NCBI GenBank assembly: GCA_041651015.1 | Contig: JBAZKA010000002.1 | Span: 70,163 to 134,162 of the forward strand | Source: Patescibacteria group bacterium | Lineage (GTDB): Bacteria; Patescibacteriota; Patescibacteriia; Magasanikbacterales; GWA2-37-8 | Direction: 5' to 3' | DNA: 64,000 bases | Shown here: in pieces, positions 24,364 through 24,652 of the stretch | Position numbering within the stretch: the stretch's first letter is position 1 | Layout: every line of letters begins with the position of its first letter | Position numbers and translations under genes: made by a program | Notes under the pieces: generated by a model | Told to the model about the DNA's origin: nothing | The model's input: only the letters and a program-made list of their open reading frames with translations | The model's database searches: none

Positions 24364-24652
24364 GCCGAGGTAGCTCAGTGGTAGAGCGAAGGACTGAATT
24401 TCGGTCCGCCCAGCAGTAATGTTGGGGCAATAATCGGGTGAATTCGGGGAAACCCCTTGGGGCAATCCCGAGCCAAGCCGAAACGGTTTAACTCTTTCGG
24501 AAGGTGTAGAGACTAGCGAGTGAGTGCCAACAATAATCTCGCAAAAGCGCCCGACTCCCATAATTGGGATGATGATATAGTCCGATCCTCAAGGCAACTT
24601 GAGAAAAATATGGAAAATCCTTGCGTCGCGAGTCCGATCCTCGCCCTCGGCA
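24364..24652 (+). tRNA. tRNA-Phe (anticodon GAA) interrupted by a group I intron
   Basis: 5' exon GCCGAGG-TA-GCTC-AGTGGTA-GAGC-G-AAGGA-CT. 3' exon GAAAA-TCCTT-GCGTC-GCGAG-TCCGATC-CTCGC-CCTCGGC-A. The spliced anticodon loop is CUGAAAA. Confidence 0.8.
24396..24612 (+). ncRNA. group I self-splicing intron (217 nt, no ORF) in the tRNA-Phe anticodon loop
   Basis: P1 pairs exon GACU with the intron GGUC (U.G at the 5' splice site). P-like AATTCGGGGAAA, Q-like AATCCCGAGC, R-like GTAGAGACTAGCG and S-like GATATAGTCC elements are present. A P9 hairpin has a GCAA loop, and the intron ends in omega-G. Confidence 0.8.

Follow-up and report, generated by a model that had tools for sequence, protein, structure and literature searches.

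The stretch of DNA analysed here, a 64,000-nt window of contig JBAZKA010000002.1 (assembly GCA_041651015.1), carries a gene for tRNA-Phe(GAA) that is interrupted within its anticodon loop by a group I intron of 217 nt. A first-pass annotation made from the letters had placed this intron after U33, and both the exon coordinates and ARAGORN in its intron mode agree with that placement (Table 1). The first exon, GCCGAGGTAGCTCAGTGGTAGAGCGAAGGACT, ends in ...GAAGGACT, and the second, GAAAATCCTTGCGTCGCGAGTCCGATCCTCGCCCTCGGCA, begins with GAAAATCCTT, has A as its discriminator base and does not encode the CCA end. When the exons are joined in silico, ARAGORN calls the 72-nt product as tRNA-Phe(gaa) with a regular cloverleaf and the anticodon loop CUGAAAA, the loop that had been anticipated. 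From the genomic sequence the same program returns tRNA-Phe(gaa) i(34,217), a boundary shifted rightward by one base, since G is the first base of the intron as well as of exon 2; U33/G34 is the sole boundary that combines a U at position -1 with a terminal intron G, and the final G previously noted for the intron is G24612.

The group I identity holds up in Rfam as well, where the Intron_gpI model (RF00028) matches 24387-24604 on the plus strand with 72.5 bits (gathering threshold 50; E = 1.9e-16) over its entire length (positions 1-253 of 253). Open reading frames (ORFs) of at least 60 aa that overlap the intron lie in minus-strand frames only, which also run antisense through the neighbouring tRNA-Ala gene; there is no plus-strand ORF within the intron, and ribozyme helices occupy all 217 nt. 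The intron is accordingly free of an ORF, as had been claimed, and lacks the endonuclease ORF that distinguishes a mobile group I intron. In its default mode ARAGORN reports only tRNA-Ala, tRNA-Pro and two tRNA-Ser genes for the window and misses the split gene, and neither ARAGORN nor Rfam found a second tRNA-Phe within the 64 kb; the split copy may be the sole tRNA-Phe gene of the genome. Sequence and homology together make it very probable that the locus is an intact tRNA-Phe(GAA) gene of a member of the Patescibacteria (Candidate Phyla Radiation, CPR) close to the Magasanikbacteria, holding a self-splicing group I intron between U33 and G34.

Intron structure

The folded intron contains every helix from P2 to P9, including the pseudoknot formed by P3 and P7, and the 59 pairs that we drew by hand are all standard pairs, none of them broken. 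The strings that had been put forward for P4, P7 and P9, the last with its GCAA loop, were recovered at their positions. The earlier description of P1 was right about the U.G pair at the splice site and the pairing of GACU with GGUC, and too short by one base pair, the helix being 5 bp long (GGACU/GGUCC). A further hairpin between P7 and the 3' strand of P3 (P3'), at the position of P7.1, constitutes a 30-nt insertion relative to the model in the RF00028 alignment.

Table 1. Features of the split tRNA-Phe locus and its surroundings in window coordinates, with the conservation of each intron helix in alignment A1 (described below)
Feature	Position	Strand	Description	Paired in A1	Compensatory changes in A1
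144-aa ORF	23594-24028	-	public gene call, just upstream of tRNA-Ala		
Plus-strand frame	23591-24139	+	antisense to the 144-aa ORF		
Promoter-like site	24063-24091		TTGACT-17-TATAAT with upstream TG		
146-aa ORF	24121-24561	-	public gene call		
Direct repeat, first copy	24185-24203		19 nt, 3' end of tRNA-Ala		
Direct repeat, second copy	24331-24349		19 nt		
tRNA-Phe exon 1	24364-24395	+	acceptor 5' strand, D-arm, anticodon-stem 5' strand, C32, U33 (ARAGORN, spliced and genomic)		
Group I intron	24396-24612	+	217 nt, ORF-less, omega-G at 24612 (Rfam RF00028)		
P1	24391-24395 / 24403-24407	+	exon GGACU / guide GGUCC, 5 bp, U33.G24403 (U24395.G24403) wobble at 5' splice site (direct reading)		
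P1 loop		+	GAAUUUC, contains the P10 guide		
P10	24399-24402 / 24613-24616	+	guide UUUC / exon 2 GAAA, adjoins P1 on the guide		
P2 hairpin	24409-24415 / 24420-24426	+	7 bp, GUAA (GNRA) loop 24416-24419	92.7%	7/7 pairs
P3	24434-24440 / 24548-24554	+	UCGGGUG / CGCCCGA, crosses P7 to give the group I pseudoknot	99.8%	4/7 pairs
P4	24444-24449 / 24466-24471	+	encloses P5	99.8%	present
P5	24453-24455 / 24460-24462	+	lengths vary	69.7%	
P6	24472-24474 / 24503-24505	+		96.2%	present
P6a	24478-24483 / 24495-24500	+		99.6%	6/6 pairs
P7	24509, 24511-24515 / 24578-24583	+	G + GACUA / UAGUCC, A24510 bulged; guanosine-binding helix, matches Rfam consensus	100%	invariant
Extra hairpin, P7.1 position	24516-24520 / 24538-24542	+	between P7 and P3', stem GCGAG/CUCGC, loop UGAGUGCCAACAAUAAU	100%	3/5 pairs
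P8 hairpin	24556-24560 / 24565-24569	+	UCCCA-UAAU-UGGGA (direct reading); length varies	73.9%	
P9 hairpin	24588-24593 / 24598-24603	+	CUCAAG-GCAA-CUUGAG, GNRA loop	98.7% (51 members having P9; 37 without)	6/6 pairs
12-mer AGTCCGATCCTC, intron copy	24579-24590	+	P7 3' strand, J7/9, start of P9		
tRNA-Phe exon 2	24613-24652	+	anticodon GAA, A37, A38, anticodon-stem 3' strand, variable loop GCGTC, acceptor 3' strand		
T-arm in exon 2	24628-24644	+	GCGAG-TCCGATC-CTCGC, C55 at 24634		
12-mer AGTCCGATCCTC, T-arm copy	24631-24642	+			
Hairpin and T-run	24662-24714		18-bp hairpin followed by T-run		

A family of homologous introns

The species-representative genomes of GTDB were scanned with one core pattern, GTAGAGACTAG-N(2-6)-GTGAG-N(1-6)-CAACAATAATC, which returned at least 119 loci (distinguished below by L numbers), nearly all of them labelled as CPR/Patescibacteria lineages. 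Since the pattern itself fixes GTAGAGACTAG, GTGAG and CAACAATAATC, invariance at these positions and the ratio of Phe to Asn hosts are biologically uninformative. Among the 119 listed loci the host is tRNA-Phe(GAA) by ARAGORN intron-mode call in 89, a tRNA-Phe that the program took for Pro, Ile, Val or Phe(aaa) in 10 and a tRNA-Phe cut by contig ends in 2, giving at least about 101 tRNA-Phe loci besides the window; the others comprise tRNA-Asn(GUU) split at 35/36 (12), tRNA-Leu(UAA) (1), a truncated remnant (1) and 4 unassigned loci. The mis-calls arise where intron mode shifts the boundary, and yield Pro(ggg), Val(aac), Ile(gat) and Phe(aaa) among L004, L019, L023, L043, L079, L091, L099 and L101, which parallels the errors reported for tRNA-Asn and tRNA-Asp (PMC13011429).

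All 90 listed tRNA-Phe genes, the window included, are split at 33/34 with a U at position -1 and a G at the intron's 3' end, and their introns measure 203-297 nt, none of the 90 containing an endonuclease ORF. P1 has 4-6 bp in 88 of these 90 members, and its guide strand covaries with the exon, GGACU being matched by GGUCC in 34 listed loci and GCCCU by GGGGC in 33, with CGCCU/GGGCC also present, while exon and guide sequences combined at random as a control mostly form 2 bp. A P10 of 3-7 bp adjoins P1 in most listed members.

The structure of the window intron was scored on a MAFFT alignment of 89 sequences, namely the window and 88 homologues (A1; Table 1). It is kept in 92.5% of the cells, as opposed to 31-48% when the 3' partners are slid by 1-3 columns, and changes on both sides occur in 38 of the 59 pairs, values that none of 500 shuffles reached. 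At the 94 columns that are conserved to at least 90% the window deviates once, which equals the family median, and the window copy is an intact member of the family that is not decaying.

Two architectures can be told apart at the intron's 3' end (A1 columns 393-424). A P9 with a GNRA loop is found in 51 of the 88 homologues, mostly together with exons GGACU / GAAAAUCC, and the other 37 lack P9 and end in a short tail such as AAAUUCAGCUUCG, mostly together with exons GCCCU / GAAGAGGC.

The same intron lineage, with the same loop on the hairpin between P7 and P3', resides in tRNA-Asn(GUU) at 35/36 in L012, L015, L021, L024, L062, L072, L074, L094, L110 and L116, and also in L083 and L114. In ten listed loci the 5' part of the tRNA-Asn intron holds an ORF that ends in a CxxC..H (HNH-like) motif. 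L049, from a metagenome-assembled genome labelled Pseudomonadota, has the lineage in tRNA-Leu(UAA) at 33/34.

Two loci document tRNA-Phe genes with and without the intron. In L044 (CAVRXN010000002.1; locus coordinates of about 6210-6450) an intron-less tRNA-Phe(GAA) that is intact, and whose T-loop has C at position 55 (C55), is followed after 24 nt by a 5'-truncated intron, present from GGAAGGTGTAGAGACTAG on, together with a 3' exon that belongs to another tRNA-Phe, an arrangement that looks like the replacement of a split gene with a remnant left behind. In L109 (CAZHTA010000001.1, minus strand) an intron-less and an intron-containing tRNA-Phe with identical exons flank a scaffold gap of 10 N, which reflects either a co-assembled population that is polymorphic for the intron or an artefact of scaffolding.

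The closest copy among the matches listed is L080, labelled 'Patescibacteria group bacterium', whose tRNA is 97% and whose intron is 85% identical to those of the window; L038 and L086, both Candidatus Magasanikbacteria, have tRNAs with 95% identity. A tRNA-Ala(UGC) gene lies shortly upstream of tRNA-Phe in the window and in all three relatives, and in L080 a tRNA-Pro(UGG) gene also follows downstream. The nearest exons and introns and this gene order, together with Pfam families such as DUF5671 in the window, lend indirect support to a Patescibacteria origin. From these comparisons the intron appears to have been inherited vertically with its host tRNA, the guide and the anticodon stem co-evolving. 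A recent horizontal acquisition of a mobile intron by tRNA-Phe would be the other possible history, and the presence of the lineage in tRNA-Asn, at times with an HNH-type ORF, and in Pseudomonadota tRNA-Leu(UAA) would fit it, as would the alleles with and without the intron in L109, given their identical exons. We nevertheless consider it quite unlikely, because the listed tRNA-Phe introns are devoid of endonuclease ORFs, because the guide tracks the host's own anticodon stem, and because the closest introns among the matches listed are found in hosts that also have the closest exons and the same order of tRNA-Ala and tRNA-Phe.

The T-loop and the shared 12-mer

The spliced tRNA has the T-loop TCCGATC with C55, as the first-pass annotation had pointed out. 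The base is no local anomaly: C55 recurs in 5 of the 89 listed tRNA-Phe homologues (L031, L063, L078, L086 and L118), besides the intron-less tRNA-Phe of L044, and confidence in C55 in the window comes from this recurrence and not from an independent assembly, the search for one having returned the ENA contig to which the window is identical (see below) and a Logan contig that ends short of the tRNA. The T-stems that enclose C55 among the tRNA-Phe relatives vary in a compensatory manner (GCGAG/CUCGC, GGGAG/CUCCC and GUCAG/CUGAC), which speaks for C55 tRNAs that are functional and under selection. Beyond tRNA-Phe hosts, 16 of the 274 intron-less tRNAs in the listed loci (about 6%; Gly, Ile, Val, His, Arg, Thr, Leu and Phe) have a TCCGA T-loop with C55, and 6 Cys or His tRNAs among the same 274 have G55 in a TGCAA T-loop, so that non-U55 loops amount to about 8% in all. 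Judging by this distribution, C55 is a recurrent feature of Patescibacteria tRNAs that is unrelated to the intron. Non-U55 T-loops could reflect a relaxed or lost Psi55/T-loop modification in Patescibacteria; a search for literature on non-U55 T-loops in this group turned up nothing relevant among the results listed.

This evidence also bears on the possibility that the locus is a decaying pseudogene, in which the intron no longer splices or the C55 tRNA does not function and another tRNA-Phe elsewhere does the work. C55 in place of the usually conserved U55 might be taken as a sign of decay, the tRNA-Phe search covered 64 kb of the genome, and L044 illustrates how an intron-less copy can take the place of a split tRNA-Phe, of which a truncated remnant is left. 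The window intron, however, has all 59 of its pairs intact and no more deviating conserved columns than the typical family member, its P1 and P10 match the gene's own exons, the C55 tRNA-Phe genes of L031, L063, L078, L086 and L118 keep their T-stems by compensatory changes, C55 is present in the other Patescibacteria tRNAs counted above, and the window holds no other tRNA-Phe. Decay is on these grounds very improbable, and we maintain that the gene is intact.

The 12-mer AGTCCGATCCTC, which had been reported as common to the intron and the T-arm, does occur as two exact copies in the window and nowhere else in it, against an expectation of 0 from 100 shuffles. The importance attached to this identity is harder to uphold, since it is conserved in no relative and the common ancestry of each copy within its own lineage explains the match. 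The window is the only locus in which intron and exon 2 share a 12-mer, the other 89 listed loci sharing at most 9 nt. At the intron site AGTCCGATCC is found in L080, L051, L084, L103 and L119 and the identical 12-mer in L107, in each case beside an unrelated T-arm. The match is therefore best read as a coincidence of two constrained motifs, to which a U55C change would have been added.

We also weighed whether the 12-mer is functional, as an alternative partner for P7 or a folding checkpoint, or is a short conversion tract that created C55 as well. Two exact copies only 52 nt apart are suggestive, and in comparison with L080 (GCGAG-TTCAATC-CTCGC) both differences in the T-loop of the window shift it toward the intron sequence. 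Yet the intron side, AGTCCGATCCT(T/C), is ancestral in the relatives just named, the T-arm side is native, L038 (GCGAG-TTCGATC-CTCGC) being a single substitution away, and C55 is independent of the match, being found as well alongside introns with AGTCCAATCC at this site (L086, L118 and L063). Moreover, AGUCC and the U-CGA of the T-loop are forced by two independent consensus motifs. As an unconserved identity between two copies that are each ancestral in their own lineage, the 12-mer was rejected as a functional element or conversion tract, either of which is highly improbable; a short gene-conversion tract is possible in principle, and nothing calls for one.

Genomic surroundings

The Pfam families found around the locus are those of a cell (LTD, metallophosphoesterase, GrpB, DUF5671, Wzy_C, MFS, patatin and YgjP). 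A phage origin was considered and, in view of these families, dropped; the phage collection gave only generic tRNA matches and a weak match with core sequence of the group I intron in a cyanophage psbA gene.

A strong, near-consensus promoter-like site with an upstream TG precedes tRNA-Ala by 39 nt, and an 18-bp hairpin with a T-run lies just downstream of tRNA-Phe (Table 1), which suggests that tRNA-Ala and tRNA-Phe probably form one transcription unit. Between the two genes, the 3' end of tRNA-Ala is repeated as an exact 19-nt direct repeat, CGAATCCCCGTCGGTCCAC, and the two copies bracket 127 nt (24204-24330) with a GC content of 67%, the window as a whole having 45%. In L080, L038 and L086 tRNA-Ala lies merely about 6-30 nt upstream of tRNA-Phe. 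The arrangement has the look of an insertion of 146 bp, or of an att-like scar left at the tRNA-Ala 3' end by an integrative element, that is specific to the window genome; an Rfam search of the region (24185-24349) gave no match.

The window is identical to part of a 241-kb metagenome contig, k141_1359160 of ENA assembly ERZ27247363, and reads of the organism occur in SRR8542065, among others. The public gene calls for this source contig (L121 and L122) do not annotate tRNA-Phe and place two minus-strand ORFs in this region, of 146 aa and 144 aa, neither of which has a Pfam match. The 146-aa ORF, which is very nearly certain to be spurious, covers tRNA-Ala, the spacer and the greater part of the intron. 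The 144-aa ORF runs antisense to a plus-strand frame (23591-24139).

Discussion

Several points weigh against the interpretation of the locus as an intact gene with a self-splicing intron. The search for tRNA-Phe spans 64 kb of a 241-kb contig, and a second copy elsewhere is possible; L044 and L109 demonstrate that an intron-less tRNA-Phe can coexist with a split gene or replace it. C55 could in principle weaken the elbow of the tRNA. P7 provides no evidence from covariation, its 5' strand having been set by the search pattern, and the quality of the MAFFT alignment is low across P5, P8 and the 5' exon, the two helices scoring 70-74%. Splicing at this locus, finally, is a prediction from sequence and homology. 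We regard the interpretation as well founded all the same, given the intact fold and the match of guide and exons.

In group I splicing, a guanosine bound in P7 attacks the 5' splice site marked by the U.G pair of P1, the omega-G then replaces the free guanosine, and the exons are ligated. At the window locus the precursor would probably be co-transcribed with the upstream tRNA-Ala. The internal guide UUUC-GGUCC is predicted to pair with the end of exon 1, GGACU, to form P1, whose U.G pair would mark the 5' splice site; once the first step is complete, the guide could also pair with the start of exon 2, GAAA, to form P10 and so align exon 2. The P3-P9 core would fold with its P3/P7 pseudoknot and the additional P7-P3' hairpin. 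An exogenous guanosine in the P7 site would attack after U33, G24612 would take over that site, and the 3'-OH freed on U33 would attack after G24612, the joining of the exons restoring the anticodon loop CUGAAAA. Catalysis by the window intron is presumed by analogy, because homologous Patescibacteria tRNA introns splice in vitro; the tRNA-Asn intron of GCA_016700035.1 has been found to self-splice precisely in vitro (PMC13011429).

If the split gene is the genome's sole tRNA-Phe gene, splicing could gate the supply of tRNA-Phe, and an idea of this kind, of a growth or nutrient checkpoint, has been raised for Patescibacteria tRNA introns in general (PMC13011429). One might go further and propose that the tRNA-Phe 33/34 intron is among the most widespread and most anciently vertical of the Patescibacteria tRNA introns, given at least about 101 species-level genomes from many classes beside one example in the literature, and that its guanosine-dependent splicing acts as an RNA-level growth or nutrient checkpoint on tRNA-Phe supply; we offer this as a speculation that is doubtful as it stands.

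In practical terms the locus matters chiefly to annotation. The split gene escapes default tRNA finders, so that a pipeline would report the genome as lacking tRNA-Phe, an artefact of apparent tRNA loss that has been described for tRNA-Asn and tRNA-Asp (PMC13011429), and public gene calls put spurious ORFs over the region. The window adds one more intact example and leaves what is known of group I introns and tRNA splicing unchanged; the tRNA-Phe intron family, with its at least about 101 further loci, is nevertheless far larger than the single published case suggests, and the tracking of the anticodon stem by the guide is clear across it.

That published case comes from a survey of 95 complete Patescibacteria genomes by Nakagawa et al. 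(mSystems 2026, PMC13011429; preprint July 2025, 10.1101/2025.07.03.662931), in which a group I intron at 33/34 of tRNA-Phe(GAA) was described in Doudnabacteria GCA_016699995.1 (Tables 1 and S3), the split gene being the sole tRNA-Phe of that genome (Table S2). The Doudnabacteria intron shares with ours the host tRNA, the U33/G34 site, probably the phylum, and the absence of an ORF; it is 211 nt long as compared with 217 nt, is plainly homologous to the window intron, with 76% identical columns and core blocks in common, and has the same hairpin between P7 and P3', with the loop GUGAG..CAACAAUAAUC. It differs in belonging to another class-level lineage and in having a short 3' tail in place of the P9 GNRA hairpin. 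Its anticodon stem reads GACGC where that of the window reads AAGGA, with the guide changed to match, and its T-loop is a normal TTCAATT, unlike the TCCGATC of the window.

The tRNA-Asn(GUU) 35/36 intron of GCA_016700035.1 belongs to the same lineage and is nearly as similar (74% identical columns), with the same hairpin at the P7.1 position and GNRA loops on P2 and P9. Besides host and insertion site, it differs in the sequence preceding P7, UUCAGAGACUAG as against GUGUAGAGACUAG in the window; and an HNH-type endonuclease ORF is present in some of the tRNA-Asn copies and in none of the 90 listed tRNA-Phe copies.

Classical introns of subgroup IC3, in Anabaena tRNA-Leu(UAA) at 34/35, tRNA-fMet at 33/34, Azoarcus tRNA-Ile and Agrobacterium tRNA-Arg, are likewise small, ORF-less and situated within the anticodon loop, with a U.G pair in P1 and an omega-G. 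Their core strings are nearly alike (CCGAGCCAAGCC and GGAAGGUG.AGAGACU), and the Anabaena intron is identical to that of the window in 68% of columns. They reside in other host tRNAs, however, and have no counterpart of the window intron's 27-nt P7-P3' hairpin, which covaries. In the Michel-Westhof scheme, subgroup IA is marked by one or more extra helices (P7.1/P7.2) between P7 and P3'. The window intron has such a helix at 24516-24542, as one hairpin only, and in place of the compact core without a P7-P3' helix that characterises IC3 it shows a 30-nt insertion relative to Rfam and a hairpin that covaries. The authors of PMC13011429 assign nearly all Patescibacteria tRNA introns to subgroup IA and none to IC, and that published assignment agrees with the covarying hairpin that we predict for the window intron.

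The earlier tFind preprint (10.1101/2020.01.27.920355) raised the number of intron/tRNA settings from 4 to 21 and remarked on how frequent such introns are in metagenomic assemblies from unnamed phyla. The first-pass annotation called Phe(GAA) an unusual host, a view that was right for the classical literature and that the published 33/34 case and the further tRNA-Phe loci found here have made obsolete. The pairing of intron and host seen in the window is thus already published, and the locus is a further, intact case of a kind that is common in Patescibacteria.

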